A stretch of 64,000 nt of DNA, taken from positions 7,068,001 through 7,132,000 of the forward strand of contig CDPCPM010000239.1 of assembly GCA_976551045.1 (NCBI GenBank). Direction: 5' to 3'. Source of the stretch: Glaucostegus cemiculus (Eukaryota). Positions 3,345-61,619 of this stretch are shown here, piece by piece. Numbering within the stretch: position 1 is the first letter of the stretch; each line of letters begins with the position of its first letter. The translations under genes were made by a program, and so were the position numbers. The notes beneath the pieces were generated by a model, which was not told where the DNA came from, ran no database searches, and saw nothing but the letters and a program-made list of their open reading frames with translations.

Positions 3345-4832
3345 CATGAAGTTATAGAATCATACCGCACCAAAACAGGTGCTTCAGCCCAGCTCGTCCA
3401 TGCCGACTGAGATGCCTATTTACACAAATTCCATTTTCCTGCATTATGCCCATTTCCCTCTGTTCCTTTCCTATCCATGTGCTGGGCAAAATGCATCTGC
3501 CTTTACCACCCCCTCTGGCAGCTTGTTCCATCTGCCCACCACCCTCTGTGTGAAAAGCTTGGCACTCAGATCTCCTTTAAATATTTCCCCTCTCACCTTT
3601 AAACCATGCCATCAGTTTTAGACTTCTTTACCCCTGGAAAAAGACTGTGACCATCTACACCATCTATACCCCTCATAATTTTATAAGCCGTTATAAGGTC
3701 ACCCCTCAGTCTCCTGTGCTCCAGTGAGAACAATCTCAGTCTATCCAATCTCTCCTTGTAACTAAAACCCTCCATTCCAGGCAACAAAACAGAGACACAG
3801 TGGATCAGCTTATTACATCTTCTCCCCTTCCCCCACCCACTACCTTTCCCCCTCACCCGGACTCACCTATCTCCTGATCTCCCCTATCCCCTGCTTGCGT
3901 GCGCTCCTCCCCCTCCCCCCACTTTCTTATTCTGGCCTCTGCTCTCTTCCTTTCCAGTCCCGATGAAAGGTCTTGGGCTGAAACTTCAACTGTTTATTTC
4001 CCTCCATGGATGCTGCCTGACCTGCTGAGTTCCTCCAGCACTTTTTGTGTATTATTCCAGGCAACAATATGGTGAATCTCTCCTTCACTCTTCCTGGCCT
4101 TGCCATATCCTTTCTAGAGTGTAATGACCAGAACTGCACACACTATTCCAAGTGTGACTGAACCAGTGTCTTGTACACCTGAAATGTGATGTCACAGCTC
4201 TTACATTCAATACCCCTGCTTATGAGGGCAAGCAAACTAAATGTCTTCTTCACTCCCCAGTCCAATTGTTCACCATCTTCAGGACACTATGACCTTGTGC
4301 TCCAGAGTCCCTCTGTACATCAATGCTTCTAAGGTCTCTGCCATTTACTGTATATGTTCAACCATTATAGGACGAACCAAAATACTTCACCTCACACTTG
4401 TTGGATTAGATTTCATCTTCCACCACTCTGCCCAACTTTCCAGATGATCTATATCCCTTTGTTTCCTTAAGCAATCATTCTTGGTATCTGCATCTTCATG
4501 TGGTCAGCAAACTTACATATCAGACAACAGACATTCTCATCCAAGTCACTTATATATAGGACAAACAACAAAGGTTCCAGCACTGATCCCTGCAGTATAA
4601 CACTGGTTATATACTTGCAATCAGAAAACCAACCCTCCACACTATCATCTACTTCCTATCAACAAGCCAACTTTGGATCCAGTTTGCCAATGCACCTTGG
4701 ACCTCATGTGCTCTAACTTTCTTGATCCAGCCTACTGTGTCAGACGTTGTCAAAAGCCTTGCTAAAGTCCTTGTATGCCATGCCTACTGCCTTGTCTTCA
4801 TCAATTTTCTTAGTACCTTCTCAGAAAAACTT
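3345..4832 (-). mobile_element. CR1 (HER1-like) LINE, 5'-truncated, interrupted by a PLE insertion at 3788-4053
   Basis: ORF 3599-3856 LPGMEGFSYKERLDRLRLFSLEHRRLRGDLITAYKIMRGID and ORF 3927-4139 QFWSLHSRKDM..RVKERFT; TAGAATCATA tail at the left end. Confidence 0.9.
3788..4053 (+). mobile_element. Penelope-like element 3' terminus (pseudo-LTR) with degenerate hammerhead motif
   Basis: Pyrimidine-rich tract, then CAGTC-CCGATGA-AAGGTCTTGGGCT-GAAAC-TTC-AACTG (3955-3992), then the shared tail GATGCTGCCTGACCTGCTGAGTTCCTCCAGCA. Flanked by the 14-bp direct repeat ATTCCAGGCAACAA (3774-3787, 4054-4067). Confidence 0.75.
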
Positions 4833-11700: not shown

Positions 11701-13196
11701 ATCCCAATATAAATTCCAGCCCAGTTTATGTCCATATCTAGTTTTTGATTCATTACTAGTTTCTCCAGAATGTCACATACATAGTCTTCTTCCATTGACA
11801 CAAGTTTCCTAGTTCCTTATTTCCTTATATTCATTTGCGAAGTTGGCTGCATCAGTACTTAAAGGTCCTAGAACACCCTCAGGCTGCGGAAGTGTAGAAT
11901 CACAGAATCAGAGGATAGTTACTGCATCATTCAGCTTAGGAAGTCCACACCGGCTTTGTGTGAGAGTAATGCAGGTAGACCCCTTCCCCCAACCTCTACT
12001 CACTGCCCTGTGGTTCAGTGACCTAAACAAGGTAGAAAAGGTAAGTAACGTTGTTGAGATTATAAAATCATTCCTTTTTCTCCCTCATACAGCTGAAGCT
12101 CACAACATACTGGGAGAAGCAAGGCAGAAATCAAAGACTGAAAGCCAACTACACGAATGCATGGAGTAGACAGCCAAACACAACATCTGCTCCAACGTTA
12201 TATGGGTAACACGTATCCAACTCTATGACATGTGCATCTTCCTCATGCTGCTGGATGTGGTTCACGTGGTTCATCTCGTGCAGAAAGTTGGGTGCATTTA
12301 GACATTGGTGTATGTGATGAATACTTCTAGTCCACATCAAGGATCATCAGTTGCAATGCCAGGGTCAGTCACACAGCATGTCTGGCAATGAATGAAAATG
12401 GTCATTGTCAGGAAGATTCTCCTCTTTGGATACATGGTGCCAGAACTCTGACCATGACCAACTTTCAACTGGAGCCGGATTCAGGGTAATCCATGGTTAC
12501 GTGGGTGTGCACAATTCATTGCTGACTTCAGACATCACGGGCTTGTATAGTTCTCAGTGTGATGGTATCTTCAGGATACGATCGAATGCCAGTGTCACAT
12601 GGCAACCACTGCAGTGCAGCCTGATTGAGGCAGAAACATTTTCCAGAGTCACCTTGACTACTCCTTCATTTTATTATTTTTGTAAGACATGTTTCTGTTA
12701 ATCTTAACGCTTATTCGGGATTCTTTATTCTCTATTTTATCTGTTGCTGCAGTTTTTTTGAATTTAACATTCTCTGTCCACTTCTTTTCCTTTTCTCTTT
12801 AACTTTACATGTCCAGATTTTGCAGAACATATTGAAACATGCAGATCCCAGAGCTGTAGTCAATAGTTCAAAACTGTTCTTCTGAATGCATTTCAAACAG
12901 ATCCAAAGTTGGGACAATTCCTCACCACTTACACCAGGGAACCTGAATGCTAATTACATACCAGGTTGGACCTTTGAAATCCTCCAGTGATTTCAAAGGA
13001 AAGGAATAGAGGTAATTTGAGATTTGTTTTATTTGTTCCTGTGCACTTAAACGTTTATGTCTTTTAAGTGTTTTCTATTTATTTTTTGATTATTTTTATT
13101 GTTTTAATAGAATTTGTTAGATTGTGAATGCCTGAATATTTTTTAAAAGGTAGAAATATTCATCAACATTCATAGTTAATGAGAAAAAGGAATAGT

Positions 13197-13358
13197 CTGC
13201 AGTCATTGGAAATCTGAAATAAAAACATAAAGCCTTGGGAATACCAAGAAGACCAGACAGCATTCATGGAGAGATGAAAGATCACCAACCAAAGTGTTGA
13301 GTTTCTCTCACAGTAGATGCTACCTGATCTGCTGGATATTTCCAGCATTTACTGTTCT
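13197..13358. mobile_element. fold-back PLE tail element (older subfamily)
   Basis: Left arm GGAAATCTGAAATAAAAAC..CAGACAGCAT is the reverse complement of the PLE tail; right arm GATGCTACCTGATCTGCTGGATATTTCCAGCAT is the forward tail. Confidence 0.6.
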
Positions 13359-13825
13359 TAATCCCCATTTACTGTTACTTTAACAGCTGTGGGCAAGTGA
13401 TTGACCAGCTGTCAACATTTATTTCACCATTCCTTTGTGATTAGGGCTTTTTTTTTAACTGGTCCAATATTCAAATGATCCTATTAATCTTGAAAAAGGC
13501 CCTGAAGACATGCAAAGCCTCATTGTATAGCGCCAAGACTGATCTGAGGTCTTCTGTTCTATGTATGTCCTCTGTTGTGTGAGTCTGGGAGAAAAGAAAA
13601 TTTCATTCCGCCACGTGTTTTTATAGCATGGATGAATGACAATAAAGTAACTTGAACTTGAAGTATATGTTCCAGCTGGGAGAGCAGCACTAGTTAATTT
13701 TGGACAATAAGTGGTTAACAGTGAGCTTGGGGCTCTCCACCAACTGGTTACTGTGTTTATATCTATCATTGACCATGGCTGCACTAATTGGTAAGTAGAC
13801 CACTTTCTTCTTAAGACTGAACATT

Positions 13826-14352
13826 AGACCATAGAACATAGATACTTACAGCACAATTCAGACCCTTCTGCCCACAAAGCTGTGCCGAACATGTCCCCAC
13901 ACTATTAGTCTACATAGCCTTCTATCTTATTTACCTCCATGTACCTATCCAACAGTCTCTTGAAAGACCCTATCGTATCTGCCTCCACCACCATTTCTGG
14001 CAGTCTATTCCACTCACTCACCACTCTCTGAGTAAAAGACTTACCCCTAACATCTCCCCTATATCTTCTCCCCAGCACCTTAAACCTATGTCCTCTTGTG
14101 GCTACCATTTCAGCCCTGGGGAAAAGCCTCTGACTATCTACCCTATCAATACCTCTCATCATCTTATACACCTCAATCAGGTCCCCCCTCATCCTCCTTC
14201 TCTCCAAGGAGAAAAGGCCGAGTGCCAGCAACTTGCTCTCATAAGGCATGCTCCTCATTCCAGGCTGCATCCTCATAAACCTCCTCTGCACCCTCTCTAT
14301 AGCTTCCACATCCTTCCTGCAGTGAGGCAACCAGAAATGAACACAACACTCT
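13826..14352 (-). mobile_element. young CR1 LINE 3' fragment
   Basis: ORF 13905-14468 is uninterrupted across the element: ECCVHFWLPHCRKDVEAIERVQRRFMRM..LGLFSLERRRMRGDLIEVYKMMRGIDRVD..FTQRVVSEWNRLP; CATAGA-repeat tail. Confidence 0.95.
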
Positions 14353-15654
14353 ATGTTGGCACTGTATTGGGCTAAATTCTTACCTAGGCACCGATTATTT
14401 GCAGGTTTACCTGTTAATTGCTTTTGATTTAGTTCAGTTTGTCCACCTCTACCTTCAAAACTAAACAACCAAAATCTAGAATGTTGGTAACTGATAAATA
14501 TTTATTTTTCAAAGTCAAAGTTGAATTCAGTCATACTCTGATCACTGTTCTCTTATTTTACTTAATTAACTATATCTGGCTGTTATAATAACCCACCCTT
14601 TTATTAATTCAATAAGATAGTACCACTAACTTTCACAACAAAAACTCAAGACATTCTAATGTAAGTCAGTCTGCTCCTCCCAATATAAATGTAAAATAAC
14701 GTCTCCTGTTAAAACAATGTTGATTTGCTGCAAACTTATTTAATCTCTGAATTAATACATTCTGCCACTCGTGGCTGCTGTCAATGGGCCCTGTTGATAA
14801 TTTATATTACTTTTAAGTCCTTTCTCATTCAAGGATCTAATTATCTTCCCTCATCTTATTATTTTATTCATAAGGCTATCTCAATTCCTCAACCAGTTTC
14901 CTTATTTTGTTTTCTGAGAAACTTGACCAAAATATTGATCAGTCTCTGGAACAGTAAATAGAAGTCAGCGAGGTGTGGAAATGAATATTTATTTTGTGGG
15001 ACCACTGCTATGGAGGAGTCAGATAGTGACATGCTATAGATTGGACTTTGTTCACTCTGTGCAGTGAAAGGCCTTTCTTTGGCATGTCCCATAATGACAG
15101 AGTGTGCATAGGAACAGAGGTAGGTTGCAGTTCAGGTTCATGGGTCACAGCAGGAAGTTGAAGGGAAAGGTCAAGGTAGTGAAGAATGGGCAAAGTCAGG
15201 GGAGAGAAATTGGTTCCCCAAAGAGACAATTTCAGGGTGATAGTTAAAGGGTTATGATTGGCTATTGGGTAATAGTTGGGGTTACAATTAGGTGCCAGGC
15301 TCAGGCTCATGATCTTCAAAGGTAAGGGTCTTGCACAGGGACCCAACAAGTTGCCTTCCCTTGGGCAAAATATATTAATAGGGACTGACCTGATAAATCG
15401 TCACAAGTCTGGACTTCATGATCCACACCCAATGTATCAGTTGTTATAATGAAACAAGCCAGACAATGTCAAAGCTTTCTTCTGCAAAGGTGGGCCACTA
15501 TCATCCATTGCCCCTCTTGGAAGAGGCCCTTTGATGAATCAGTGCATCAGATGCACAGAGAACCGAAGAAACAAAATGTGATCTCCGCACAGAATGCAGC
15601 AAGCCCACATTTCTTTGCCATTTTTTCATGGAAATTTGATCAAGTGCATGACAT

Positions 15655-15901: not shown

Positions 15902-15987
15902 CATTAGTATTGTGCAATGCCGCCAAATTTTAGAATTCTTCAATCTCAACCATGTAACTCAAAATTATGAGTAACCTAGAGCCATGA

Positions 15988-16105
15988 CAGGTCTAATGAA
16001 ATGTCATTAACTTGAAACATTAATTCTGTCCTTCTCAATAATGCCTAACTTGCTGAGTATTTCCAGCATTTTCTGTTTTTCATTTCAGAATTCTAGAATT
16101 TGCAA
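15988..16105 (+). mobile_element. old PLE tail with hammerhead remnant
   Basis: CAGGT-CTAATGA-AATGTCATTAACTT-GAAAC-ATT-AATTCTG followed by TGCTGAGTATTTCCAGCATTTTCTGTTTTTCATTTCAGA. Confidence 0.55.
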
Positions 16106-16764
16106 AATGTTCCTTTCTGACCACTCCTTATGCATGGATCTGTTTCTATCTCACACTTCAACTCAAGGAATCTGAGCTGGAACATCAAAAGGCATTGATA
16201 TTTCCTGCAGATGTGGACATCTGGAACAGATGTAGTCAACAAGCTGCTACATATCACAGTCCCAACACACTGACTGCACCACTATATTTAATTTTATTTA
16301 TTTTGCATATTAGTTTAATTTAATTTTAGATTTAATAAATGTACATGAAGTAGATTATATTTATGAGATGAATTTACTATGATTTCATGTTAATTTATAA
16401 CTAATGTGCCTTAATTTTTGTTTAATGTTTTCAGTATCCTCTTAATTCTTATTAATTAATCATTTATGCCAAATTGTTACATAAAGCATTTTGAAACCCT
16501 TTATGTTGGCATCACCACTGAATTTATTTCTCTTGAGACTAAAGTTATTTACTAAATTTGTGTATTTTCATATTTATCATTGCAATATATTATTAAGCGT
16601 CTCATTTGCCCTTTACACTGAACTCCCACTCTCAAAATATCTTTTAACTCACATGCAGGATATGGACATTGTTGGCCCACCAATCTCATTCCGAATTGCC
16701 GTTGGGTGGTAATAGTGAGCTGTGGTCTTGAGATGGAGGCATTTCCATAGGATTATTTATTAAG

Positions 16765-17819: not shown

Positions 17820-18350
17820 GAGATCACTCCCATCATACAGGAGATATATCCACTTCCTGTTCTTTTCATCTTTTGCTCACATTGTTTTTCTATTGTTGGC
17901 TCCATTCTCCTCACAATACCTTTGTTCCTTACCCACATTTAACTTTTCCATTTGTTTCATGCTTCTTTTCTTGTTCTTACTTCCCTGATAAGTCTTCTAT
18001 CTTCCCCTCAGCCTAATTCCCTCCATTCACACTGTTACTTATTTTCATTTAACTTCTATTAAACCTTACATTTCTCTTCCATTGCCTTTCCTAGTCCTCT
18101 ATCTATCTGTCTATCTATCTTTTTGTCTTCCTTTCTTTGAGCAAACCTCTGTTCACTGCCTCACTTTTCATTTCACATCATTGTCTATCTCCTTGTCCCT
18201 TTCAACAGCTGACATCCATCCATCCGTATCCAGTGTTTCTATGTTTTCAATGACCTAAAATGTTAAACCTTTTTCTCTTTCCTCAGATGCTGCCTGACCT
18301 GTTGAATATTTAAGCTCTTCCTACTATTATTTCAGATTTCCAGCATCTTT
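17820..18350 (+). mobile_element. old PLE 3' region
   Basis: Long CT-rich tract with (CTAT)n, ending CAGATGCTGCCTGACCTGTTGAATATT..TTTCAGATTTCCAGCATC. Confidence 0.6.
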
Positions 18351-19398: not shown

Positions 19399-19570
19399 TG
19401 ACCCCATTCGAATGAATGTGGTCACCCTACTAACGCCCTCTTTATATTGGAGTTTCACTGAACTCAGCAGAGTGTTAACTTGTCTCTGATGTAAATTTTT
19501 GATGGCTAGGCAGGGGAGATGGAAATGAGCTGATCTGTGAAGGGCATGTTGCTGGTGGTACTCTGCAGAT

Positions 19571-19817
19571 GGGTGGCACGATAGCGTAGCGGTTAGTGCG
19601 ACGCTGTTACAGCGCCAGCGATCGGGGTTCGATTCCTGTCACTGACTGTAAGGAGTTTGTACGTTCTCCCGTGTCTGCGTGGGTTTCCTCCGGGTGCTCT
19701 GGTTTCCTCCCACATTCTAAAAAAGACGTACGAATAGGTTAATTTGTGGGTTTAAAATGGGCGGTACGGACTCGTTGGGCCGAAAGGGCCTGTTACCACG
19801 CTGTCAATAAAAAAAAA
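19571..19817 (+). mobile_element. tRNA-derived V-SINE (HE1-like), CR1-tailed subfamily, young
   Basis: A box TAGCGTAGCGG; B box GGTTCGATTCC (19626-19636); V domain GTTCTCCCGTGTCTGCGTGGGTTTCCTCCGGGTGCTC; tail TGGGCCGAAAGGGCCTGTT plus A-rich end; many CpGs retained. Confidence 0.92.
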
Positions 19818-20615: not shown

Positions 20616-22312
20616 AAACTAATTGTAAGTGAAGAGAACAAAGCCTAATGTTTAAAACTGTGGGAATTAAACAGGTAAACGCAGTGCAGCAATAAATCAA
20701 CAGTAAGTATCATGACACAGTGCTCTGAATTTTTAATTGTGAGAAGAACTACATTTTACAGAAGTGACCTTCCCCTGTCATACCCAACATAAATCACTCG
20801 TGCCAATCCCTTTCTACATGAAATATAATGAATCACTTCTTCATTTGAGGAGTTCAGCAGTTAACTTCTTGAGATTATTCTTGAACTGCTTCACGTTAAC
20901 TACCACCGGAACATCTTTTGTGCTTTGAGTGTGACCGCTAATTGTATGCTAATATTGGCTTTGCTCAGAAATTTGTCCTTTAATGTTAGGGTTAAACATT
21001 ATCTGCATATTCTACTCCACTTCCAATTTTTGATTACCTTAACTTAAATTCAAAGGCAGCGTACACTGCAATAGCCACACATTGTACATTGAATGTTAGT
21101 TACTGAGGACCGTCTCTAGTTTCCAGCTATCATCTTTCACTTCCAGACTTTAATACACAGCTTACAAATAATTAATTGAAAGTATGGACGAATTTCTTGT
21201 TTTCTGTTAGTTCTAAGTCTTTCACGATTCAGTAATATAAATCTCATCTGAGGCTTGTTTTTGGCACCAGAAGATTTGTGTCACATTTCCTTTGGAGAGA
21301 AAAAAAGTTTAAATTTTATTGTTGCACTATGATGCATTTTGAAGCTCTAATAAATGACTTATAGCAACATTCCATTTGTGTAACAATTTCATTTGTAGCA
21401 GATTGAATTCTGAATTCTTTGAAATGAAAACTGAGGCACAGTCTGCAAGTGTAATATTGTTAAGTAAAAATTTCCATTTTTCAAGTGCCAAGAAGGGTCC
21501 TTTATGAATACATTAATGTAAACTATACAAGACAGATCCACAGGACAAGAGAGCAGGATATAGTACAAAATATTGCAGAAATGGTGACTTGTGTCATGTA
21601 ACAGGTTGCCAATATCTGTATGATTTCAGAATGTAGTGAAAAATTGATGGAAAATGATGCAAGGGATATGAGTTTTTTTATATAGATTTTTAGTGAAAAA
21701 ACTGGATAAATATAATATGCGAAAAACTGTTTTTTCTCTGCTATACTTGAACAGACAACAATTAATGGGATCTCTTGCAGTGGTTTTGATCACGATTGGA
21801 AAAGTGGGGTGGTCTGATTGGAATTTCCATTTATTTCCGCCTTACTGTCCCGATTTTCTTTATTTTGTTTTGCAGGACTTTAAAAGACTGTTGGTAGGGT
21901 TAGAGGGTGTGTCTTTAAGTCACTACAGGCATCATGATTATGGAAAAGAAACTCAAGTGCAGAAAAATTAATGCATACTGCTTTAGTCCAGTCCTTCCCA
22001 CCATCCAGGTCTCCAAAACTCTCCTTTCACTGGAATCCACATTTATTTGAATTTCTTTTGATTTCGGACCATCGTGAACTCAAATTCAGCTGCTGTTTGG
22101 GCACCATCTGAGCCAGTTGGTTTCTGTTATTGCATCCAATACGTGGATGCACATTACAGCAAGGGAAAGTCATCTGCTCATGGGACACTGCCAATATATT
22201 GGGAAAAAAATGTTGTGTAGGCAGATTGTGATGCCAATCAGAGGCAAAGGTGATCATAACATGATGAGATTTTACATTAAGTTTGGAAATGATTCAGTTC
22301 AATTTGAAATTT

Positions 22313-22563
22313 GGGCAGCACGATAGCGTAGCGGTTAGTGCGACGCTGTTACAGCGCCAGTGACTGGGGTTCGATTCCCGTCGCTGACTGTAAGGAGTTT
22401 GTACATTCTCCCGTGTCTGTGTGGGATTCCTCCAGGTGCTCCGGTTTCCTCCCACATTCTAAAGACGTACGGGAAGGTTAATTTGGGGGTTTAACATGGG
22501 CGGCGCGGACTCGTTGAGGCGAAAGGGCCTGTGACCACGCTGTAAATAAAATTTAAAAAAAAA
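22313..22563 (+). mobile_element. tRNA-derived V-SINE (HE1-like), CR1-tailed subfamily
   Basis: Near-identical to 19571-19817, with A/B boxes, V domain and GCGAAAGGGCCTGT tail. Confidence 0.92.
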
Positions 22564-22794
22564 TCAGGGTCTTAAGTCAAAACCAAGCCACAAAGCTCTG
22601 AGACATAAGGTGGCTATGATAGACTGGGTTAACCCCAAATAATAATAAAAATAATAATACATTGACATGTATGACAGTTATTAAAGAATTAATATACAAT
22701 TTTCAATAAATATATACCCCAATAGGAAATGTGACCCAGCTGCAACTAACAAGAGAATTTATAGGTAGGTCAAGCAGCATCTGTGGAAGTCCAT

Positions 22795-30185: not shown

Positions 30186-31090
30186 TAGTCATGGAGCCTC
30201 TGAGTTGTACAACATAGAATCAGGCCCTTTGGCCCACCGTGCCTATGCTGACCAGCATGCCTATCCATACTAATTCCACTTGCCTGCATTAACTCCACAT
30301 CTCTCCATGCCCTGCTCATTCAAGTACCTGTCCAGCTGCTTCTTATCTGTTGTTACTGTTCCTGTCTCCACAGCTTCCATTTGCAGCTCATTCCAGATAA
30401 CAACTACTCTTTGTGTGAAAAATTTGCGCCTCAGATCCCCTACAACTTCCTCCCTCTCACCTTAAACCGACATCCTCTAGTTATCGACACCTCTACCACG
30501 GGAAACAGACACTGATATCTACTCTATCTATGTCTCTCATAATTTTATATACCTCTATGATGTCACCCCGCCCCAGCTTCCTTTGTTCCAGGCAAAACAG
30601 ACCCAGCCTATCCAGCCTATCCCTGTAAATAAAACCCTCCAGTCCAGGCAATATCCTTGTGAATCTTTTCTGCACCCTCTCTTGACTAAGCACACATTTT
30701 CTGTAGTGTGGCAACCAGAACTGTAAACAATACTCCAAGTGCAGCCTAACTAACATTTTGTACAACTGTAGCATCATATCCCAACCCTTGTACTCAGTGA
30801 CTCAACTGACAAAGGCAAGCATTTTGTATGTCTTCTTCACCACACAATCTACCTGTGTTACCACATTCAAGGAACTACGTACTTGAAGCCCCTAGTCTCT
30901 ATGTTGAACAACACTCCCAGGGCCTTGGCAATCACTGTATATGTCCTGACTTTGTCTAACTTCCCAAAATTCATCATTTTGCACTTTTCTGAGTTAAATT
31001 CCATCTGCCATTCTCCTGCCCAGCTCCCAAGTTGATCTAGATCTTGTTGTAACCTTAGACAATCTTCTTCACTGTCCACTATATCACCGA
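30186..31090 (-). mobile_element. CR1 LINE fragment
   Basis: ORF 30867-31079 DSEEDCLRLQQDLDQLGSWAGEWQMEFNSEKCK and ORF 30493-30777 [37 protein letters not shown]. Confidence 0.95.
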
Positions 31091-32519: not shown

Positions 32520-32815
32520 GGGCAGGCATGGTAGTGTAGCGTTTAGCATAACGCTATTACAGCGCCAGTGACCCAGGTTCAATTCCCACCACTGTCTGTA
32601 AGGAGGTTGTACGTTCTCCCCATGCATGCATGGGTTTCCTCTGGGTGTTCTGGCTTCCTCTCACATTCCAAAAATGTACTGGTTAGGAAGTTGTGGGCAT
32701 GCTATGTTGGCACAGGAAGCGTGGTGACACTTATGGGCTGCCCCTAGAACATTCTATGCAAATGATGCATTTCACTGTGTGTTTCGATGTACATGTCACT
32801 AATAAAGATATCTTA
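32520..32815 (+). mobile_element. V-SINE, second subfamily with non-CR1 tail
   Basis: tRNA head and V domain, then GGAAGTTGTGGGCATGCTATGTTGGC..GATGCATTTCACTGTGTGTTTCGATGTACATGTCACTAATAAAG. Confidence 0.9.
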
Positions 32816-33829
32816 TTAACCCATCAATGTAAATTTTTTAAGGTTCTAAATAGTGATCATACTATGGCAGTCAAGGTGGAGATGATTGTAATTCCTCTGT
32901 CAATTAAGTATGGCGTCCATATTGCTATATGGAACTGCTTAACATAATGGAAATAACTTATACTTAACTATTTTTCACCCAATGTACATCCAGAAAAAAA
33001 TGCAGAAGATTTTCTGCGGTATCTGTTTCCTGTCTTCTTTCATACACTATTTTCTGAATACATTTATTTTGTTTCCTTGGAGATCTGACTGCCATGAACT
33101 ATATGACCCACCACGCCTCCTATTCAACTACTAACACATTACTGTCAATAAACACATTGTTTTTGTCAGAGAGTCCCTGTGTTAACCCATAAAGGAAAGT
33201 CCACAGGCCAGATGCTAAGATGCAAAACAAAGATTAATACTTACATTACTTCCCTTTCCAGATGGTCTGAATTTTCACTTCTGCTGAGGAGAAGGTGCAA
33301 AGATTCAGAGGGAGAAATGAAGGGATTCTTCAGGAATGTGCCCAGAACATTTGGAATTTTCTTAGTAGGCTGCATAATACCCCAAGGTCCTCTGAACTGA
33401 ACACATATTTAAAACTAAATCCAGTACTTACCTCACAAATAATGTCATAGTTTCAAAGAAAGTTGGAAGGAGCGCTTGAAATGAAAGAGGAGACTATTGT
33501 TCCACTTTGCCATAAATCCTAGTCCTTTGGTTGAGACCTTATTTCACTTGATCTTTCCTTGCTAAACCCACTTAAGACCAGCGACCTGCCACAATTATGA
33601 ATTAAATAATTAATCATTCTTTTGCTTATATATTACATACTGGGGCAAAAACTATCCAAGAGGTCAACAAAAAAATCTGTAAGAGCTGAAAACTTTAAAT
33701 AAGGAGAAGCATTGCCAAAAATGTCCGTCAGTGTCTGAGCTGAGAAAGGATCATCTCCAAACATTTTCTGTTCTCACTATACTGTTTTATGAGCAGAATC
33801 AATGTAAGAGTAACCTAGATAGCCCAACA

Positions 33830-38492: not shown

Positions 38493-39092
38493 ATAGAACC
38501 ACAGAACAATATAGCACAATGTTGTGGCGTCCATCAAACCTCACACTATCTAACTCTTTCCTCCCACATATCCCTCTATCCCACATTCCTCCATATGCCT
38601 ATCCAACAATCTCTTGAACCTGTCCAATGTATCTGCCTCCACCACGACCCCAGGCAGCGCATTCCATGCACCAACCATTCTCTTGGTGAAAAACCTCCCT
38701 CTGACATCTCCCCTGAACTTTCCACCCAATTCCTTAAAGCTATGCCCTCTTGTCTTGAGCATCTGTGCCCTGGGAAGGAAGCGCTGGCTGTCAACTCTAT
38801 CTATTCCTCTCAATATTTTATACACCTCTATCAAGTCTCCTCTCATCCTCCTCCTCTCCAATGAGTAAAGCCTTAGCACCTTAAGCCTCTCCTCATATTC
38901 CATACCATCTAATCCAGGCAACATCCTAGTAAGTCACCTCTGTACCCTCTCCAATGCCTCCACATCCTTCCTATAATGCGGCAACCAGAACTGAACACAG
39001 TACTCTAAGCATGGTCTAACTAGAGTTTAGTAAAGCTGCATCATCACTTTGCAGCTCTTAAACTCAATCCCATGATTTATAAAAGCTAACAT
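38493..39092 (-). mobile_element. young CR1 3' fragment
   Basis: ORF 38550-38924 MLPGLDGMEYEERLKVLRLYSLERRRMRGDLIEVYKILRGID..FFTKRMVGAWNALP, no stops. Confidence 0.95.
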
Positions 39093-39790
39093 ATTTAACA
39101 TAAAATACACAATATGAAGGCTGGTTCTTGTTTGTATTAATGGTTACTACTTTATGCCCTCTGATTATGACTGCTATTCCAGAACAATGGTTCAATGTTC
39201 TTTGCATTGAATTCTATTAGGCATGATGCTCTGAATATGCAAGAGTGGTTGATCAATCTATGACATGTCCTATGCTGTATACACACTATAAAATATATTT
39301 CCCATCGAATAAGATATATTGTTTCTAGATCTACAAATATGAGATCAAAAGACTTAAGGCACAACATTAGTTCTGGCAATGGAAACAAGGTACCTGGTAC
39401 CTGAAGAAGTAGCTCTCCTCATGATTGGTTCTCAGTCTGCTTGATTTCAACAGAGGCTGGTTTTCTCATTTTCCAATGGCCAAATTCTTCCTCAGAACCC
39501 TGAGGAATATTGATGTGAACTACCTTGCCTCAACAAAGATGTTTGAATGTTCAAACTTGGTTTTGCCATTTGTTTCTATTTATAAATGTATAACCGTATG
39601 GAGCCATTTGTTCACACCCAAGATACTGAAGTAAACCGTGAAGTAAAATATTAAAATTCAAGACTTTTGAGCTCTAACTGTTCAATAATTTATCCTCCAA
39701 AGAGTCGTAGTTAGTCAATCAAATAGTATTTAACTGTTGCATAGGAGGCTGCCAACCATCATTCTACTGGTAAGGATAGTAGTTGAGATT

Positions 39791-46194: not shown

Positions 46195-46495
46195 GGCGAC
46201 GGCACGGTAGCATAGTGGTTAACATAACGCTTTACAGCATCAGCAACCTGGGTTCAAATCCAGCCACTGACTGTAAAGAGTTTGTATGTTCTCCCCATGT
46301 CTGCATGGGTTTCCTCTGGGTGCTCCAGTTTCCTCTCACATTCCAAAGATGTACAGGTTAGGAAGTTCTGGGCATGCTATGTTGGCGCCGGAAGCATGGC
46401 GACAATTGCGGGCTGCCCCCCAAAATCACTACGCAAAAGATGTATTTCACTGTGTGTTTCGATGTGCATGTGACTAATAAAGATCTTATCTTATC
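46195..46495 (+). mobile_element. V-SINE, second subfamily
   Basis: Same structure as 32520-32815; (CTTAT)n end. Confidence 0.92.
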
Positions 46496-47754
46496 CAGTT
46501 GGAAAAGACAATGTGGATCTTGGCCTCGGAGAGCTTTTACATCAGCTGTGATGCATCTTGGCTTATCCAAATGTGTGTGTGCAACTAAAGTTGCAAAGCT
46601 GCTCCAGATTAAGATCCAATTTTTTATTGCCTTCTCTAAAGGACCAGTATGACTGTGTTGGCATCCTTCTTAGTCAAGGAGATGGGGGTTGGAATTGTCC
46701 TTCTCAAGAGTCATGCAGGGAACACCAAATGCTTAGCCCCTTTATGCACAGGACAGATCTGAACAGAGTGTAGTGATGACCAAAGAAAAGGGATATGGGA
46801 AATTATAGAGTCATAGAGCAATACAGCACAGATCCAGGCCCTTCGGCCCACCGAGACCATGCTGACCATGGTGCCCACCCAGCTAGTCCCAATTTCCTGC
46901 GTTCAGCCCATATCTCTGCGAGCCCCACCTCTCCTTGAGCCTATCCATTCAAAATTCCTCACTTTCAAAGCATTTTGCTAAAATCTGAGCTCGTATTTGA
47001 GGGATGTATTAAGTCACATTTATTGATAAATTACCTTCCTGAATCTTCCTCGGTGGAAGCTCAACTCTATTGATCTGCACTGGACCTTTTAAGTTCGCAT
47101 TTCCCCAGCAGTCCAGTTGATTTTCCAACAGTCTGTGGTGAGAGATGCTGGAGATGGGTCTAGGCAGATCACACCATCAATCTTAGAGATTCTTTACAGA
47201 TGATCTCAGTGGAACCCACACTGTACAACCCTGTTTACCCTGACAGCACCTTCCTGTCCTGTGACCTACTATTTACAAGGTCAAAAGCAACACGTGCATA
47301 GGAAAGTCACGTTCTACATACTCCCCTCAAAAAATCCCACCTTGTGAATATATAAACATATGAATTAGGAGCAGAAGTAGGTCACACTTTCCCTCAAGCC
47401 TGGTCTGTCAGTTAATAAGATCATGGCTAATCTGATTTTAAATCAAGTCTGCATTCCTATCTATCCATGGGAACCTTCCCCACCCTCAGTTATCAAGGAT
47501 ATATCGAACTCTGTCCTAAGGATTTTCAGAATCCTTTCTTCCACTGTCCTTTAAGGAAGAGAGCCCCAAAGATCCACAATACTGAGAGAAAAAGAAGCAG
47601 TTACCTCATTTCTGCCTTAAATGGGTGCCCTCTTATTTATGAACTGTATCCCTTGGTTCTGGGTTCTCCTACCAGAGGAAATGCTCCAAATCAGTTGTTC
47701 AAGACCGATCCAGATCTTTTACTTTTCAATCAAACTGCCACCCCCTAACTCTTC

Positions 47755-48270
47755 TAAACCCTGGTAGACTTGGAAATAGATCACTGGCCCTTTATCAGCG
47801 TTGGACCTAAACCATGAACTCCCTACCCAAAAGCACAATGGGAGTACCTTCACCAGAAGGACTGTAACAGTTAAAGAGGGTGTCTCACCACTACCTTTTC
47901 TCAAGGGCAATTAATGGTGGAAAATAAGACAAGATATTTTTATTAGTCACATGTACAACAAAACACACAGCGAAATACATCTTTTGCGTAGAATGTGCTG
48001 GGGGCAGCCTGCAAGTGTCACCGTGCTTTCAACACCAACATGGCATGTCCACAACTTCCTAACCCGTATGTCTATGGAATGTGGGAGGAAACCGGAGCAC
48101 CCGGAGGAAACCCACGCAGACACGGGGAGAATGTACAAACTCCTTACAGGCAGCGGCGGGAATTGAACCTGGGTCACTGGTGCTGTAATAGTATTACGCT
48201 AACCGCTACACTACCGTGCCTGCCCAAAATGTCGGTCCAGCCAATGACACCCACATTCCAAAAATGAATA
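47755..48270 (+). mobile_element. L2-clade 3' end interrupted by a V-SINE
   Basis: GACTTGGAAATAGATC..CTCACCACTACCTTTTCTCAAGGGCAATTA | SINE | CCAGCCAATGACACCCACATTCC. Confidence 0.7.
47924..48225 (-). mobile_element. V-SINE, second subfamily
   Basis: Reverse complement of the 32.5/46.2 kb SINEs, including an intact V domain (GGGAGGAAACCGGAGCACCCGGAGGAAACCCACGCAGACACGGGGAGAA). Confidence 0.93.
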
Positions 48271-48559
48271 GAGAAAAGGTCACCTCACAATTTTCCATTC
48301 TCGACAGACAACAGAACTAAGAATTAATATCTTGCTGCTGATGTTCAAATGACTTGCATTAATTGAAGCAAATAGATTTGCAGCCCCAGAGGAAACATTA
48401 CAAAGCAACTATAGGTTGGAGAGTGGGTACAGTAGGAGTCTTCATCAGATCATCCTTTTTTTATCTTGGTCTTTATGTCTGTGCTCACCAAGACAAATTT
48501 GTTAACTGAGGACAAAACCTGAGAGCCTCGACCATTTTAATGACTGGAGTAAATTTATC

Positions 48560-49145
48560 AAGACACAAGAGACTGCGGATGCTGATCTTCGGAGGAAGAC
48601 ACAATCTGCTGGAGGAACTCAGTGGATTGAGCGGCATCTGTGGGAGGAGAGGAATTGTTGACGTTTTGGGTCAAAACCATGCATCAGGACTGAGAGTGGA
48701 GAGGGAAGAAAGCTGGTATAAAGAGGAGAGGGGGAGTAATAAGACAGGGGCCAGTAGGTGATTGGTGGACAGACGAAGGGTGAAGGATGATTGGCCGGTG
48801 GGGGCAGGAGGGGAGGGAGGGGTGGGCGGTGGCGGAGGGGGTGGATTTGGGAGACAGAGGCAGGTGGATGATCGGTGGAAAACAAAAAGAAAGAAAAGGC
48901 AGAAGGTACCAGGTGGGGGTAGGGCAGCTGTCTCCACATTCACCCTCCCTTCCCCCTACCTGGTTCCATCTGTCCACCATCCTGCTCCCTTCCTTTGCCA
49001 CCTATTACCTACTAGCCCTTGTCACACCCCTCCCCACCTCACCTTTATACTCCACTCTCAGTCCTGATCCTGGGTCTCGACAAATTCCTCCACTCCCCTT
49101 CCCTCCCACAGATTCTTCTCCTACTGAGATCCTCCAGCAGTTTGC
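48560..49145. mobile_element. PLE with inverted (head-to-head) pseudo-LTR arms
   Basis: About 48560-48930 is a minus-strand PLE end (hammerhead remnant 48655-48692); about 48940-49145 is a plus-strand copy of the same sequence (CTCCACTCTCAGTCCTGAT on both arms). Confidence 0.8.
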
Positions 49146-51054
49146 TGAAGTCAGTTTACAAATGATAACATAGCTCTGTCATAACCTCTCAAGGTTTAAT
49201 ATCTCCTGATGTTTCTTTGACTCAAAATATCCTTTTTTTCCCCCACAGATGCTGCCTGACCTATTGAGTGTTATTTCATTATTCTCTGTTTACTAACTTT
49301 AGAAATAGAAAAAACAGAAAATGCTGGAACCACTCAACATTTTCTGTTTTTATTTCAGATTTCCAGCATCTGTTTGTTTTAGTTTGTTTATTTACTTTTT
49401 ATTTCCTTACTTACAAGTTAATTCTAATGGAGAGACAATGACCTGGATTGTATTTTGCTATTAATCTACTTTATGTCCTAACCTCAATGATTTTTTTTTA
49501 AAGTCATCAGATTTGTGATTGTGTAGACCTGAGGCACTGGTCAAAAGCTGCCATGAAAAAGAAATGCTTGGGACATAAATGAAAGGCACAGGACCTGAGA
49601 GACAGCAGCAGCAGGCGTATGTGCTGAAGGATGAGTGATGGAGCCCATTGTGCATGGAGGCTGAAGACTCCGATGTTGTGTTTGCTAAACTGGAAATATG
49701 AGTTTCAGGAAAGGAATTCCAATATTCCTTCCCTAGAACTGTCTTTTATGTTTTTCTCATATGTTATAAATTTCAATTTTGTAATACTTCTTGACAGTTC
49801 TGTACATTGAGAGTTGTTGAAAAAGACCATAACTGGAGCAAGATCTGGTCAACAGCAGGTAATATTTTATGAAACACATTTTACAGATTCCAGTCAGAGA
49901 ATTCAGTTGCTTGGGGGAAACTGAATGCAGCCAGAATTCAGAATTACACACCATCTGTTGGGGATGGACACAGATTGGATTTTTCACGCTGTGTCTTGAT
50001 TTTTATATTGATTATTATTTCTAATGGGAAAGGTAAAAATCCAATCATATTGAGCAGAGGTTTCAGGCTGGGATCTACACAGGTATTTGTGAAATGTATC
50101 TCCTTTTGCGTCAAATCAAATTTATCCCTTAATTTAGTTTCCTTGTGAATTCTGAATTCTATACACTTTGTTATATGTGCTGACATTTTTTTTGCTTTCT
50201 TGCTTGTAACTTCTGTTACTAATAGGATGTATCTTCTGAAACAGAATCAATTTCTTTTAAGGGTATACCATCTTCCTGAAGTTAGAGTACTTGACTCAGT
50301 GTCAGTACTGGAGGAATAATGTTCAATAGTAAATTCCATATTCCATGTTGCTAATCCTCAGGAGCAGATATCACTGTCAATTTTGTCTTTTATTGCCAAT
50401 CTAGTTTTACTGAGAAGATCATGGTGGACCACCTGCTTGAAAGCAGATCGATTCAATCAGATCTTTGATACAAGCCACATATAGGCTAGATCGAGTAAGT
50501 CTGCAGGTTTACTTAAGATCAATTCTGACCCTGTTGCTCACTTTTACAGATGCACTTTTTACATTTCCAAATTTAAAAAAAAGAGTCTGAATAAAAATTA
50601 ACAAGAAATTAAGTCTCAAATTGAATTTATACTTCGGGATTTCCAATCCAGATTTCAACATAGGTGGCCCAGCATCAAGATCTCTACCTAGTACTGTAAG
50701 GTGTTATTTAATTCAGGGGCAACTTCAGCATAATTAATGTTTGAGATTTTACCAAGAAATTTAAATCCCAGGGGAATGTTGTTGAAGGGTGTGATTTTAG
50801 TGAGTGCCACTGAGTCAACTGTTGTGGTTGAGAAGAGGGGACAGGGAGAGACTGGCGATTCAAAGATCAGGTGCCATAGTCGGTCACACAGCCAGGCAGC
50901 CAAGGTTCTAACATTGAGACAACACCCTCAGAAAGCACTGGAGTCATGCTTACTGTAACTCAGGTCAACCAGTGTGGTTGTAACCGCCGTTAATGACACT
51001 CATTGGAGACTTGAGAAAACAATCGGTCACTGACACTACAAGAGCAGCAATACA

Positions 51055-51850: not shown

Positions 51851-51900
51851 AACAAACATGAAAATATGACATTTGCTGCCTCAGGAAAATTATTGAAACA

Positions 51901-52188
51901 GGTGCAACAGTTAGCGTAACACTATTATAGCGCCAGCGACCTGGGTTCAATTCCGGCCACTGTCTGTAAGGAGTTTGTATGTTCTCCCCGTGTCTGCCTG
52001 GGTTTCCTCTGGGTGCTCCAGTTTCCTCCCACATTCCAAACTCGTATGGGTTAGGAGCTGTGGGCATGCTATGTTGGCACAGGAAGCATGGCAACACTTG
52101 CGGGCTGTTCCTAGAACACTCTACGCAAAAGATGCATTTCACTGTGTGTTTCGATGTACATATGACTAATAAAGATATTTTATCTTAT
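51901..52188 (+). mobile_element. V-SINE, second subfamily
   Basis: Same head, V domain and tail as the 32.5 and 46.2 kb copies. Confidence 0.92.
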
Positions 52189-52237
52189 ATCCAGGGCCCA
52201 AGCACCAATCACAACAATACCCCTGTCAGCCTACGAA

Positions 52238-52395
52238 AGAACACAAGGGACAGAGAATGCTGGAATCTGGAACAAACAAACGACCTTCTGGAGGAACTCA
52301 GCAGGTCAGGCAGCATCTGCAGAGGGAAATGGACAGCCGATGTTTTGGGTCGAAACCTTTCATCTGATGCCACCTGACCTGCTGAGTTCATCAAG
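52238..52395 (-). mobile_element. PLE terminus with hammerhead remnant and short inverted arm
   Basis: Minus strand 52366-52334 reads CAGATGA-AAGGTTTCGACCC-AAAAC-ATC-GGCTG, then the PLE tail; flips to the plus strand at about 52366. Confidence 0.75.
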
Positions 52396-52399
52396 TGGG

Positions 52400-52950
52400 T
52401 TATATTTTGCTCCTTATTCTGGGACCTTATTAAAAACCCTCTGATAATCCAAACACTCCACATCCACTGGTTTCCCCTTATCTATTGAATTACAATATCC
52501 TCAAAAAATTCCAATAGATTAGGAAAACATGATTTTCCATGCTGATGAAGGGTCTCGACCCAAAACGTCAACTGTTTATTCCCCTCCATAGATGCTGCCT
52601 GACCTGCTGAGTTCCTCCACACATTTTGTGTGTATGACTCAATCCTATGATTGTTTTCAAGGTGTTCTGTTATTACAGCCTTCATTTCAGATCCTAAAAC
52701 TGCCCTACTGTTGACGCTTTGCCAACAGGTCAGTGGTTCACTGATTTCTTGTTCCCTCCTTTATTAAATAGTGGAATTACATTCACTATCTTCCAGTCCA
52801 CATGAACAATTCCAAAACCTATAGAATTGTGGAAGATAATAACCAGTCTGTTCACTTTTTCTATAGCCACCTCTTTCAAAACTCTGGGGTGCAAATCATC
52901 AGGTACTTGGAATTCATCAACCTCTAGTCTCACTGGCTTCTCTTGTGTTA
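52400..52950 (-). mobile_element. CR1 RT N-terminal fragment interrupted by a PLE end
   Basis: ORF 52730-52969 PDDLHPRVLKEVAIE..LVIIFHNS..G.VHVDWKIVNVIPLFNKGG; KSCFPNLLEFFED in ORF 52482-52685. Confidence 0.9.
52542..52574 (+). ncRNA. minimal type-I hammerhead ribozyme motif (5' stem I lost, CpG-decayed) in PLE end 52542-52633
   Basis: CTGATGA-A-GGGTC-TC-GACCC-AAAAC-GTC-AACTG: intact CUGAUGA box, perfect stem II and GUC triplet. The two deviations from GAAAC and GACTG are both CpG>CpA changes. Confidence 0.7.
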
Positions 52951-54992: not shown

Positions 54993-55210
54993 TCTATCTA
55001 TCCCCCTTTTGTCTTCTTTCCTCGGCACCTCCTCTCTTCTCCACCTCTAATCTTTAACCTCACACCATTCAATTCCAATCACTCACCCATCCTTACTTAG
55101 TGTTTCTCTGCCTTCATTGCCTCGAAATATACTCACTTTTCTCCTTGAATGCTGCCTGACCTGCTGAGTATTTCTAGCCCTTTCTGCTTTCATTTCAGAC
55201 TTCCAACATC
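54888..55210 (+). mobile_element. PLE 3' region, paralogous to 18050-18350
   Basis: AACTTCTGTTGAACCTT..CCTAGT..TTTTGTCTTC..ATGCTGCCTGACCTGCTGAGTATTT..TTTCAGACTTCCAACATC. Confidence 0.7.
54931..55001 (+). repeat. compound tetranucleotide microsatellite (TGTC)n(TATC)n
   Basis: Read directly; a short version exists at about 18098-18120. Confidence 0.95.
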
Positions 55211-55436
55211 TATACTAGGGATTATTGTAGGGACATGTTCGGCACAGCTTTGTGGGCCGAAGGACATGAACTGTGCTGTAGTTTTTCTATGTTCTAAGTT
55301 TTTCTATGCTTTTTGCTTTCACATTTTATTTCCTCTGAACGTTCATCTCTGAATAACTTGCATAATCTTCTGTCCTCTCACAGTTTAACCTATGGTCCTA
55401 TATTGGCTGTGCTAAACACATTGTTGCTGCCATATA

Positions 55437-58617: not shown

Positions 58618-58940
58618 ACCTTCACCTCCTATCAGGTTCGATCACCTGCAGCCCTTTGTTGTCCTTTGTCGCTATTTCCACTCTCCCCTTCTCCATCTGC
58701 CTGTCACCCCTCCTCACCTGGATCCACCTATTGCTTGCCAGCTCTTGCTCCACCCCACCCCTTCAGTTTTTTTAACACTGGCTATCTCCCCTCCATCTTT
58801 CCGCCCAGATGAGGGGTCTCGACCGGAAATTTTGACTGTCTGTTTTCCTCCATAAACACAGCCCAACCCGATGAGTCCCTCCAGCACATTGATTTTTGTG
58901 CTAGATTCCAGCATCTGCAGTCTGTTGTGTTGCCATGTAA
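58618..58940 (+). mobile_element. PLE 3' terminus with hammerhead remnant
   Basis: CT-rich tract, CCGCC-CAGATGA-GGGGTCTCGACCG-GAAAT-TTT-GACTG (58801-58838), tail CTAGATTCCAGCATCTGCAGTC. Confidence 0.75.
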
Positions 58941-59446
58941 TTTCTGTGTTATTTTTAGTAGTACTATATTAATACCCCAGAATATGTGAGGTCCTTTGGT
59001 TCACTAACTGCAGGTTGTCAATTTCTGTGCTCACCTGAACATATAAGACGATCCCAAGGCTTCTTTCATTTCCATGTATTAATGGTGGTGCACTCCAGTG
59101 GAGGTTCTCCCCAGGTTACGACAGGATTCCGACGCTGTGAATTGTTTGTAATCCAAACAGTGCGTAAGTCAGAAATGCGGCCACAGACTGAGTTCCCACT
59201 CAGCGAAGATGCCTACAGCCACACAGCACCCAGCATCGTACTGGTCTCCCAAATGCTTATTCGTATGTGTGGCTCTATACAAGTCAGGCATGCATAAGCC
59301 TGAGAGGAACTGTAGTTCTCTCTGATTGCCACTGCAAAAACCGAGCCCATAATTCAAAGTGCCCTACAATCCACTACTGTCCACTTTAATTTTAAATTCT
59401 GAATGCCATGCTCATCGTTGAGGCACGGAGGCCTTGCACAAATAAA

Positions 59447-59586
59447 GAACATGATGCTGGAGGAACTCAGCAGGCCAGGCAGCATCCATGGAGAAAAGCA
59501 GTCAGGACCTGAAATATTGGCCTGCTGAGTTCCTCCAGCATCTTGTTTTTTCATTTAGATTCCAGCATCTGCAGTCCTTTGTTTCT
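59447..59586. mobile_element. 140-bp fold-back PLE-tail element with 14-bp flanking direct repeat
   Basis: GATGCTGGAGGAACTCAGCAGGCCA ... TGGCCTGCTGAGTTCCTCCAGCATC perfect inverted arms; CTTGCACAAATAAA at 59433-59446 and 59587-59600. Confidence 0.85.
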
Positions 59587-61619
59587 CTTGCACAAATAAA
59601 AATTGAGCCTGGAGTAGATTTGATAATGTTGTTGACATTTTTGAGATTATACACAACATTTATTATATCCCACATGTTAGATGCACTGTGTGGTGTGCAC
59701 ATGTTGGAAGGTCAAAGGTTTAATATGTAGTTTGCAATGATTTGGCTTGACTCAAGCCATTAATGCCTGGAACAGGGAAATTCACACATGATTCTCAGTG
59801 ATAAATGCATCCAATTACATCTGAAGGAATAAGTTTGCCTGGGCAATAGGCATAGAACAGGAACCAGCTTCAAAGAGATAGCATTGCCAACAGAGGTTGG
59901 TTGAATGAGGTGTCCAAGCATAGCCATATCCTCACAAGGGCAGGAGTTTTCAAGATGGAGAAAAAATTGTCTGGCCAAACTTTTCACTAGTGGTTCTCCA
60001 GAGGTGAAGGCTTCAGAACCTCTTCTACTGCCCTCAGACTTTTCCACTTGGGAAAAGTTCATTGTGTCATCTTCAATTACAATTTGCAGCAAAACATGAT
60101 GGGTTAATAAAGAAAACAAGTTCAATATTGAAGTACATTCTGCTTGTTCAAAAGAAAACAAGCGAATTAGGTCATTGCGTTTTTTTAATCTGTTTATCTA
60201 ATCTGATCATTTTACAGTGTTAAAGTAAAGAACCAATCCAGAAATACAGAAAGATAAACCCAAAGTATTTCAATGAATAAAATATCAAGAGAAGAAAAAT
60301 TGTATGAGACTGAGTAATGGAGGAAATGCGGAAGATTGAAGTGATGCATAATTTATAGAGTTTCCTTTGATTAGTTTTACTCTGTTTGTGCAGCATTGAC
60401 AGTAATAAGCTAATTTCTAAGAAGTCAAAACAGCAACTAATTTACATTTATGTAAATATCACAGCCCATTGTTGTTAAACAATGGGAAATCAAAAGAATG
60501 TTCATTAATCACAGTGCAAAGAATGACTTGATGTGAGACTGTGAGTTATTAACAAATGGCATGTTCATCTGCTTAAGGGAGACTCCTTGGCTGAAATTTA
60601 TTTGTTTTCATGATACAAATAAATTACAATAGTGGGCAGAGGAAATTGACATGGAAATGTTAGAGCCACTGTTATAAATATCACTTAGCACAATTTCAAA
60701 AATACCTGACTAAAGATGCATTTTATTCTGAATTTTTCCTTCCCTCTTACCAACCCACATGGAGTCCACCAACACACTTTCTCTTCTCATTAAGGCACAA
60801 TGTTGCCTGGTATTAGCTGCCCTGGTGTGCCTCCAATTTGCAGTTGTCCTTCCTTAGCTATTCAGCTTCAAACATCTGCAGATGCACCATATCAAATCGT
60901 ACACAGCAGAAGAAAAGGCTCCTTAAAGTAATTATACATATCGTATTAAATAGTCACACCAGCAAAGAGACACATAGCGATAAAAGGGGAAGACGGGATG
61001 AGTGGACACACTACAAATCGAAATGTGGTAATAAATTATTATAGTGCACAAAAGAAATGACAATAGCTCTCAAACTGAAAGTGTTTACACCAGATAAACA
61101 AGCTCATTGTTGACACAGATAAACAGGAACATTGGGCACATTGAACTAGAAGGATACCGTGAACAGCCTGAGCCATCACAACAAATATAACATGGCAGAA
61201 CTCATGTTTCTGATAGCTTATTGCCCAAAGTTACATCAGCTAAACCGGACACCTCCTGAAAGATTCCAGGTGACAGTATCCTTTTCTCTTCTATGTGCTT
61301 TGGTAGTTCTGACGGATGTGTATTAAACTTGTCTGCAGTGTATCAGTGAAACTGGTTAGCCTAGATACAGATTTCAAAATCAACTCTCCTGAATGAATTG
61401 CGTTTGGGAGAAGAAAGATTAGTCGTCTCTGTAATTCTATCAAATATAACATCTTAATCTTACCTAGCACAATTCACTTCTGTGGTTTGTGCATGGTTGC
61501 CTTTTGATGCTCTAATATGTGAAATGGATTTAATTGCTCTTAGAACCCTCATCAATGTAGCTGCCATGGCAATGGCACCACTGGCAGAATGCCCTCGCCA
61601 ATACAGCAAAGGTAGCTGA

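Follow-up and report, generated by a model that had tools for sequence, protein, structure and literature searches.

A short motif at 52542-52574 of a 64,000-nucleotide stretch of the Glaucostegus cemiculus genome (hereafter the window) resembles a hammerhead ribozyme (HHR) and raises the question of whether it can cut, to what kind of element it belongs, and whether cutting had any part in the spread of its relatives. An initial description made from the letters alone (the sequence-only reading) had assigned the motif to a ribozyme-processed family belonging to the Penelope-like elements (PLEs). We put at about 0.88 the probability that the copy at 52533-52631 is a pLTR stub of an abundant, likely extinct Neptune-like Penelope, that its hammerhead is dead as predicted, and that it was made by the mechanism proposed below.

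The copy at 52533-52631

The motif and the stub that contains it are delimited as follows:

52533..52631, plus strand: subfamily A stub, a 5'-truncated pLTR whose start lies about 9 nt upstream of core C3 (-9) and whose 3' end is the short one (about +90)
52542..52574, plus strand: decayed minimal hammerhead (min-HHR) within the stub, read from the sequence, with stem I pairing computed

The CUGAUGA box is intact (52542-52548) and is followed by an extra A, the 4-bp stem II with its CUCG loop is kept, and both the ACGU palindrome and the GUC triplet (ending at 52569) are intact. However, sequence reading reveals G12A at 52562 and G1.1A at 52570, two G-to-A changes that fall on CpG sites of the family consensus, and folding leaves the 5' strand of stem I (52537-52541) unpaired, with zero stem I pairs formed. 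The copy thus lacks G12 and a formed stem I, the marks of a functional hammerhead. G12 is the catalytic base in established hammerhead chemistry. Because G12 and stem I are both lost, the copy is predicted to be dead, and it is very likely inactive as a ribozyme. Its folding energy does not differ significantly from that of shuffles (z -0.36), nor does that of one intact copy (z -0.91). A script search for a target-site duplication (TSD) around the copy found none. When PLE pieces were compared with the 64-kb window by tblastn there was no match, leaving the window without a PLE ORF remnant; its copies are stubs, not whole elements. The copy at 52533-52631 is debris, one worn and broken stub of a very abundant PLE family.

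Other element ends in the window

To locate element ends, both in the window and in a genomic sample, we used a profile trained on copies drawn arbitrarily from the genome. The window holds 16 ends, or about 12 insertions if four head-to-head pairs are counted once, a density higher than the one copy per 10 kb first estimated. The copies originally listed (3955-3992 plus, 48655-48692 minus, 52334-52366 minus, 52542-52574 plus, 58801-58838 plus, and a broken one near 49059 plus) were all recovered at these places and on these strands, with the common tail seen downstream of each. Except where other evidence is given, the following features rest on the profile and on subfamily assignment:

3774..4069, plus strand: subfamily A insertion flanked by a 16-bp TSD (3774-3789 and 4054-4069, 1 mismatch)
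13189..13369, unstranded: head-to-head pair of the older subfamily B
15982..16112, plus strand: subfamily B end with a decayed core
18251..18348, plus strand: subfamily B end without the 5' core box
22765..22788, minus strand: short tail fragment (profile search)
48556..48700, minus strand: subfamily C end with an A9C core, G12A and a long tail
49053..49144, plus strand: broken subfamily C end
49217..49269, plus strand: degraded end, weakly assigned to subfamily B
52241..52426, unstranded: fold-back stub, a minus copy with a U4A core (52241-52367) head-to-head with a short plus tail (52365-52426)
55117..55214, plus strand: subfamily B end without the 5' core box
58798..58935, plus strand: end with a U4A core, mutated stem III and a long tail
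59433..59594, unstranded: palindromic fold-back made up of a minus (59442-59503) and a plus (59518-59587) tail of subfamily D, flanked by an 8-bp direct repeat (59433 and 59587)

The HHR of the subfamily A insertion (3955-3992) shows U4C and a mutated stem III, and the end at 48556-48700 appears to be the left arm of a head-to-head pair with 49053-49144. The core variant U4A marks the copies at 52366 and 58801; at 48692 and 49059 position 9 is C instead. For five of the seven units tried, a TSD search in the window found none.

The window is AT-rich and CpG-depleted (GC 39.9%, CpG o/e 0.22) and contains two other dispersed repeat families. Family 1 (3340-4260, 5310-5960, 13840-14360, 30290-30850, 38560-39120), one copy of which (3340-4260) encloses the subfamily A insertion, may represent LINE 3' ends, which it resembles; family 2 (19570-19720, 22310-22470, 32520-32820, 46210-46500, 47920-48230, 51900-52190) may be SINE-like. 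On the minus strand, a stop-free frame of 145 aa at 59763-60197 is unlike the surrounding repeats and may be a host exon. Plastid and miRNA matches returned by an Rfam scan of the window were rejected as fold-back artefacts, the plastid ones arising from the 59433-59594 palindrome.

Identity, abundance and fold of the motif

The consensus joined from the window copies has 68 exact matches in the genome (29 forward, 39 reverse), compared with 0 for the same pattern written backwards, and a chance motif was rejected; the consensus nevertheless blends several subfamilies. A generic min-HHR core pattern gave 20,238 genome matches against 496 for its backwards control, with several families pooled, and a 32-nt piece of the tail gave 8,287. 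In 100 arbitrary 10-kb stretches (1 Mb, from large contigs) the profile detected 210 element ends, with 0 in the reversed stretches, which extrapolates to about 6x10^5 ends in the 2.85-Gb genome. Note however that motif counts overstate ribozyme numbers, since a canonical core is kept in just 2 of the 105 sampled copies that cover the core (about 2%). The statement that no single copy is intact is correct within the window; elsewhere in the genome intact copies exist.

The CUGANGA and GAAA boxes and the NUH triplet occur in type-I order at the level of the family, but not in the 52542 copy or in the U4A and A9C lineages. The ACGU palindrome of stem III and the extra A after A9 are, allowing for CpG decay, the majority state in all four subfamily clusters described below. 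Stem II, originally drawn as 5 bp around a 2-nt loop, closes 4 bp only, around CUCG. With this correction the motif is what it had been taken for, a minimal type-I hammerhead whose palindromic stem III has no loop, and it is a fresh instance of the known min-HHR of PLEs. Support for this identity comes from copy number, core boxes and context, and not from folding energy; the Rfam scan found no hammerhead family in the window at E<=1. Tail folding compared with shuffles ranged from z +1.1 to -1.7 in 20 copies, with one copy at -2.6, and we claim no conserved tail structure.

Link to Penelope-like elements

Ends of GIY-YIG ORFs were found upstream of intact motifs. A search with an EN piece gave 53,870 first-look candidates, from which 150 were scored, 40 loci (39 distinct) were fetched and the frames of 20 were read. 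In 37 of the 39 distinct EN loci an HHR lies downstream of the EN ORF end on the same strand, at a distance of 235-598 nt. Typically it sits about 300-400 nt past the stop of an ORF encoding RT and GIY-YIG, and is followed by a tail with two preferred ends. These RT fragments and EN ORF ends bear out the proposed PLE link. Eight long copies contain RT motifs, a C-X4-C-X2-C linker and EN in order, all of them frameshifted, and ordered RT and EN motifs were read in loci L084, L077, L080, L094 and L099. With Pfam, 6 of 9 fragments matched RVT_1 (best E 7.6e-7) or GIY-YIG (best E 8.9e-4), all below the curated cut-offs; the initial 97-aa EN piece had no Pfam match, and a PDB search with an RT fragment returned 0 matches. 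Among the 120 matches listed, the closest RT relatives are batoid (stingray, manta) proteins at 76-78% identity, and no named PLE reference protein is found. Three of the ray and skate records containing the PLE RT fragment (P0001, P0004, P0008) carry names of host genes (kinase-domain, chitinase-domain and nicotinamide riboside kinase isoforms) and are either annotation artefacts or exonised copies.

The strict C-X4-C-X2-C linker is present in 18 of the 39 decayed EN loci; with looser patterns, CxxC before the YIG motif occurs in 27 and the histidines in 33 and 34. By the definition given in the accessible text of PMC8557442, this linker would make the family Neptune-like, an assignment by motif. 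The longest open frame among the 20 EN loci read is 353 aa, and neither an intact ORF nor a pLTR-ORF-pLTR tandem was found or verified among the loci read. The family is likely extinct, although scoring covered 150 of 53,870 EN candidates and the reading of frames 20. A candidate full-length layout is provided by L081 (G000:C43:11427600-11433400), where one direct and one inverted pLTR end lie 2.95 kb upstream of the point at which the ORF ends; the near-full-length L084 had no pLTR match upstream. The 3' ends are bimodal, at about +90-105 and about +125-135 from C3, and 54 of the 210 sampled ends form head-to-head pairs (27 pairs). In subfamily A copies, the ATG in the HHR core opens only a short frame.

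Subfamilies, covariation and inherited core variants

Clustering on downstream sequence alone of the 206 ends that reach the tail, 105 of which cover the core, defined four clusters: A (27 copies), B (43), C (23) and D (12). Stem covariation, which had been proposed as a check, is present between them. Of 33 ungapped B copies, 18 have U-A as the first pair of stem I, whereas the other three clusters show C-G or its CpG product; the pair at the base of stem II is G-U or A-U in B and G-C in the others. These changes are compensatory, and within the PLE clan they would amount to about two independent events. In a set of 21 hand-picked rows, 83% of cells are paired, with 12 double changes, a count that includes two misaligned rows and leans towards structure since the selection patterns for these rows already fixed the stems. 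We also observed a G for C just 5' of the core, which breaks stem I pair 1, in seven loci (L002, L006, L007, L020, L021, L027, L029) and in 3 of 19 unselected subfamily A copies; among near relatives of the 52533-52631 copy it may denote another sub-lineage or a query bias.

Many lesions had been attributed to CpG decay. In subfamily A, divergence is indeed 39% at CpG positions compared with 11% in the non-CpG tail and 12.5% in the non-CpG core. Core and tail diverge by 9.9% vs 17.8% in B and by 6.2% vs 18.8% in D; this lower core divergence is not simple neutral decay, and may come from mixed subfamilies and from CpG sites within the tail figure. The attribution probably fails for U4A (52366, 58801) and A9C (48692, 49059), which are likely to be inherited variants. 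C at position 9 occurs in 18 of 23 cluster C copies and in just one of the 39 A and D copies combined (p=3e-10). U4A occurs in 10 of 27 subfamily A copies and is tied to a downstream diagnostic (7/9 vs 0/13, p=2e-4). Since the window copies carrying the two variants belong to different subfamilies, the joined consensus mixes lineages. Each variant has its own flanks. A single pattern frame applied genome-wide matched 1,320 canonical, 1,042 U4A and 380 A9C sequences, and EN was found upstream in 3 of 25 A9C and 3 of 25 U4A copies. A tree built from 48 long copies after removal of the HHR put A, C and D each on one side of a branch, and U4A copies were clustered but paraphyletic.

A search of the open literature turned up no direct account of hammerheads with U4A or A9C. 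Such core variants may already be described by Lunse et al. (2017), whose subject is reportedly dimeric variants of PLE hammerheads. Changes in the hammerhead core usually cut activity strongly (PMC3088659, as far as its available text goes), and the spread of two large sub-lineages with altered catalytic cores suggests that cutting may not have been needed.

Copy ends and the proposed mechanism

The 5' ends of copies were examined in 127 non-B matches of at least 30 bits, taken from the 1-Mb sample and from 26 of 30 tail-selected loci (four duplicates were dropped). Ends fall at -10 to +9, the foot of stem I, in 41 of the 89 matches that reach +10, or about 2-3% per nt. At +22 to +29, which includes the cut site (+28), the count is 5 of 105 (0.6% per nt), and further upstream the rate is 0.3-0.7%. 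In a boundary control confined to A-type copies, none of 252 long copies, with or without added mutation, was falsely cut at the stem I foot. Because 5' ends pile up at the stem I foot and not at the cut site, the description of the family as ribozyme-processed is unsupported. In the anole Poseidon element PAc, the sole PLE tested biochemically, reverse transcription begins within the RNA at two sites in the tail, the substrate is mainly uncleaved RNA, and insertion is not impaired in HHR mutants, according to the available text of PMC11167929. The 5'-end pattern fits this internal start on an uncleaved template, and from it we infer that the stubs, which look like cDNA of uncleaved RNA, originated in the same manner.

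In the mechanism we propose, the element protein would nick DNA and start reverse transcription inside the RNA, at tail position about +95 or about +130 from C3. RT would then copy back through the uncleaved hammerhead, very often stopping at the foot of stem I. Stubs would consequently be cDNA that begins at the internal start and reaches back either to the 5' end of the RNA or to a point at the hairpin foot where RT stops, and the products would be 100-140 nt long and frequently joined head-to-head. A promoter internal to the pLTR is known from Drosophila Penelope (PMC2377424, in the portion available). In the masters of lineages A, B and D, selection probably maintained the hammerhead as a weak ribozyme assisted by dimer formation or by protein; the inserted copies would decay, mainly at CpG sites, without function.

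Could cleavage, carried out as a dimer, have made the RNA ends used for retrotransposition? We regard this as unlikely. Canonical cores with compensatory stem changes in lineages A, B and D would agree with it, as would the dimer fold allowed by the palindromic stem III, the weak cleavage of a trematode min-HHR as dimer or trimer (reported in the available part of PMC4209133), and the presence in this genome of an unrelated family with the same architecture and wholly different, still complementary stems. However, the cut site has no excess of 5' ends, the U4A and A9C lineages are abundant, and the anole insertions cited above were unaffected by HHR mutants. Furthermore, in secondary-structure calculations on an intact A copy the designed dimer hammerhead reached only -19.3 kcal/mol, compared with -34.9 kcal/mol for the duplex that competes with it, a stability deficit of about 15 kcal/mol that is consistent with the weak min-HHR activity in PMC4209133. 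Selection may instead have kept mainly a rod-shaped hairpin, as a protein-binding, transcript-start or RT-stop landmark, and not catalysis, with the hammerhead vestigial in at least two lineages; this is a possible reading that we hold only tentatively and at less than even odds. Monomers of intact A, U4A and B copies have as their MFE structure a single rod, an inactive fold with core G5-G8 paired to 15.2-17; in A and U4A it leaves U4 and A9 unpaired. The base of this rod is where the 5' ends map, and the linkage of U4A and A9C to flanking diagnostics, together with their clustering in the HHR-free tree, points the same way. The rod is absent from lineage D (N7=A), however, and the A9C copy tested folds differently, while unpaired core bases are otherwise retained across lineages. 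Altered cores also need not mean lost function: a U4C variant from a viroid does suffice in vivo despite being weak in vitro (PMC3088659, available text), the extra A in the A9C lineage might replace the role of A9, and canonical masters could supply protein or cleavage in trans.

Two further explanations concern the nature of the copies themselves. Most are just 100-150 nt long and many share a nearly identical 5' start, as a non-autonomous element of its own (SINE-like or a retrozyme) would produce; but long copies are continuous with the ORF, the 5'-truncation gradient is smooth, the U4A and A9C lineages each include EN-bearing copies, and copies are dispersed, with no tandem arrays seen in the loci read. 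We therefore rejected an independent element in favor of truncated PLE ends and consider it very improbable. That the 52533-52631 copy was exapted as a host regulatory ribozyme has a negligible probability and was likewise rejected, given its G12A change and loss of stem I; its lesions are typical CpG products, and we found no point in support. The internal-start origin of the stubs from uncleaved RNA is our preferred reading. A wider proposal, which we consider doubtful, is that the fossil record of this vertebrate PLE clan documents cleavage as dispensable, with U4A and A9C lineages amplified to at least tens of thousands from uncleaved templates and the conserved rod foot acting as transcript start or RT stop.

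A second hammerhead family in the genome

A different hammerhead family occurs in a tandem array near a contig end (G000:C4:8001-18000, with matches continuing to about 40 kb) with a period of 1.1-1.35 kb. Its units carry an identical, intact-core min-HHR with a 5-bp stem I, a 4-bp stem II and a 6-nt loop. The array is interleaved with telomere-like minisatellites and includes one run of the vertebrate telomere repeat (6839-7000); it looks like a young, subtelomeric, retrozyme-like array. An HHR of this second family was also observed on the minus strand at G000:C1:9826500-9832500, about 1 kb downstream of a frameshifted PLE ORF with RT and GIY-YIG that is just 32-47% identical to the PLE family of 52533-52631. 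Copies like it are spaced 55-90 kb apart over C1:9.83-10.48 Mb.

Significance and comparison with known systems

The copy at 52533-52631 matters little by itself, being one broken stub among several hundred thousand. The role of PLE hammerheads has been called unclear (PMC8557442, in its accessible text), and the family as a whole is a natural experiment on what they are for, with canonical, U4A and A9C lineages side by side and with insertion ends numerous enough to map the limits of the RNA template to the nucleotide. The core-variant lineages and the 5'-end pattern are a modest addition to an otherwise known PLE min-HHR.

The comparisons that follow refer to the accessible portions of the papers cited. 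The min-HHRs of PLEs described by Cervera and De la Pena (2014, PMC4209133) share with the present motif the core boxes, the extra nucleotide between 9 and 10.1, a short stem I, the palindromic 15.2-16.2 stem without loop 3, and the position in the pLTR. In both cases copies are mostly single and dispersed and several subfamilies coexist in a genome. Stem II, however, is 4-5 bp here and 7-8 bp in the trematode families, and the abundance here (about 6x10^5 ends and 20,238 intact-core matches, families pooled) greatly exceeds the 4,000 motifs given for the coelacanth and the 9,000 for the frog. In what was accessible of that paper we found no description of U4A or A9C lineages, and in the accessible supplement no shark or skate terms; the open literature yielded no direct report of shark PLE hammerheads.

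Neptune EN+ PLEs (PMC8557442) have the same single ORF with RT and C-terminal GIY-YIG, the CX2-5CxxC linker, a CCHH-type EN, an inverted 5'-truncated partner, an optional tail and an HHR in the pLTR, and the head-to-head layout observed here matches both that account and PMC3846280. The present family differs in that its clade was set by motif and in the absence of an intact ORF among the loci read. It resembles anole PAc (PMC11167929) in having two 3' ends about 100-135 nt downstream of the HHR, a bimodal pattern that matches the two internal RT starts and the optional tail (30-40 nt) of PAc, and in copies apparently derived from uncleaved RNA. PAc, however, belongs to the Poseidon clade and its ORF begins inside the HHR, whereas here the core ATG leads nowhere comparable in subfamily A. 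Finally, non-LTR retrozymes (bioRxiv 10.64898/2026.07.22.740005) also carry a type-I HHR derived from PLE pLTRs. Retrozymes form tandem arrays. The PLE copies studied here are dispersed and contiguous with ORF ends, and across the window and the 1-Mb sample they occur singly or in head-to-head pairs; it is the separate HHR family on contig C4 that better fits the tandem description of retrozymes.
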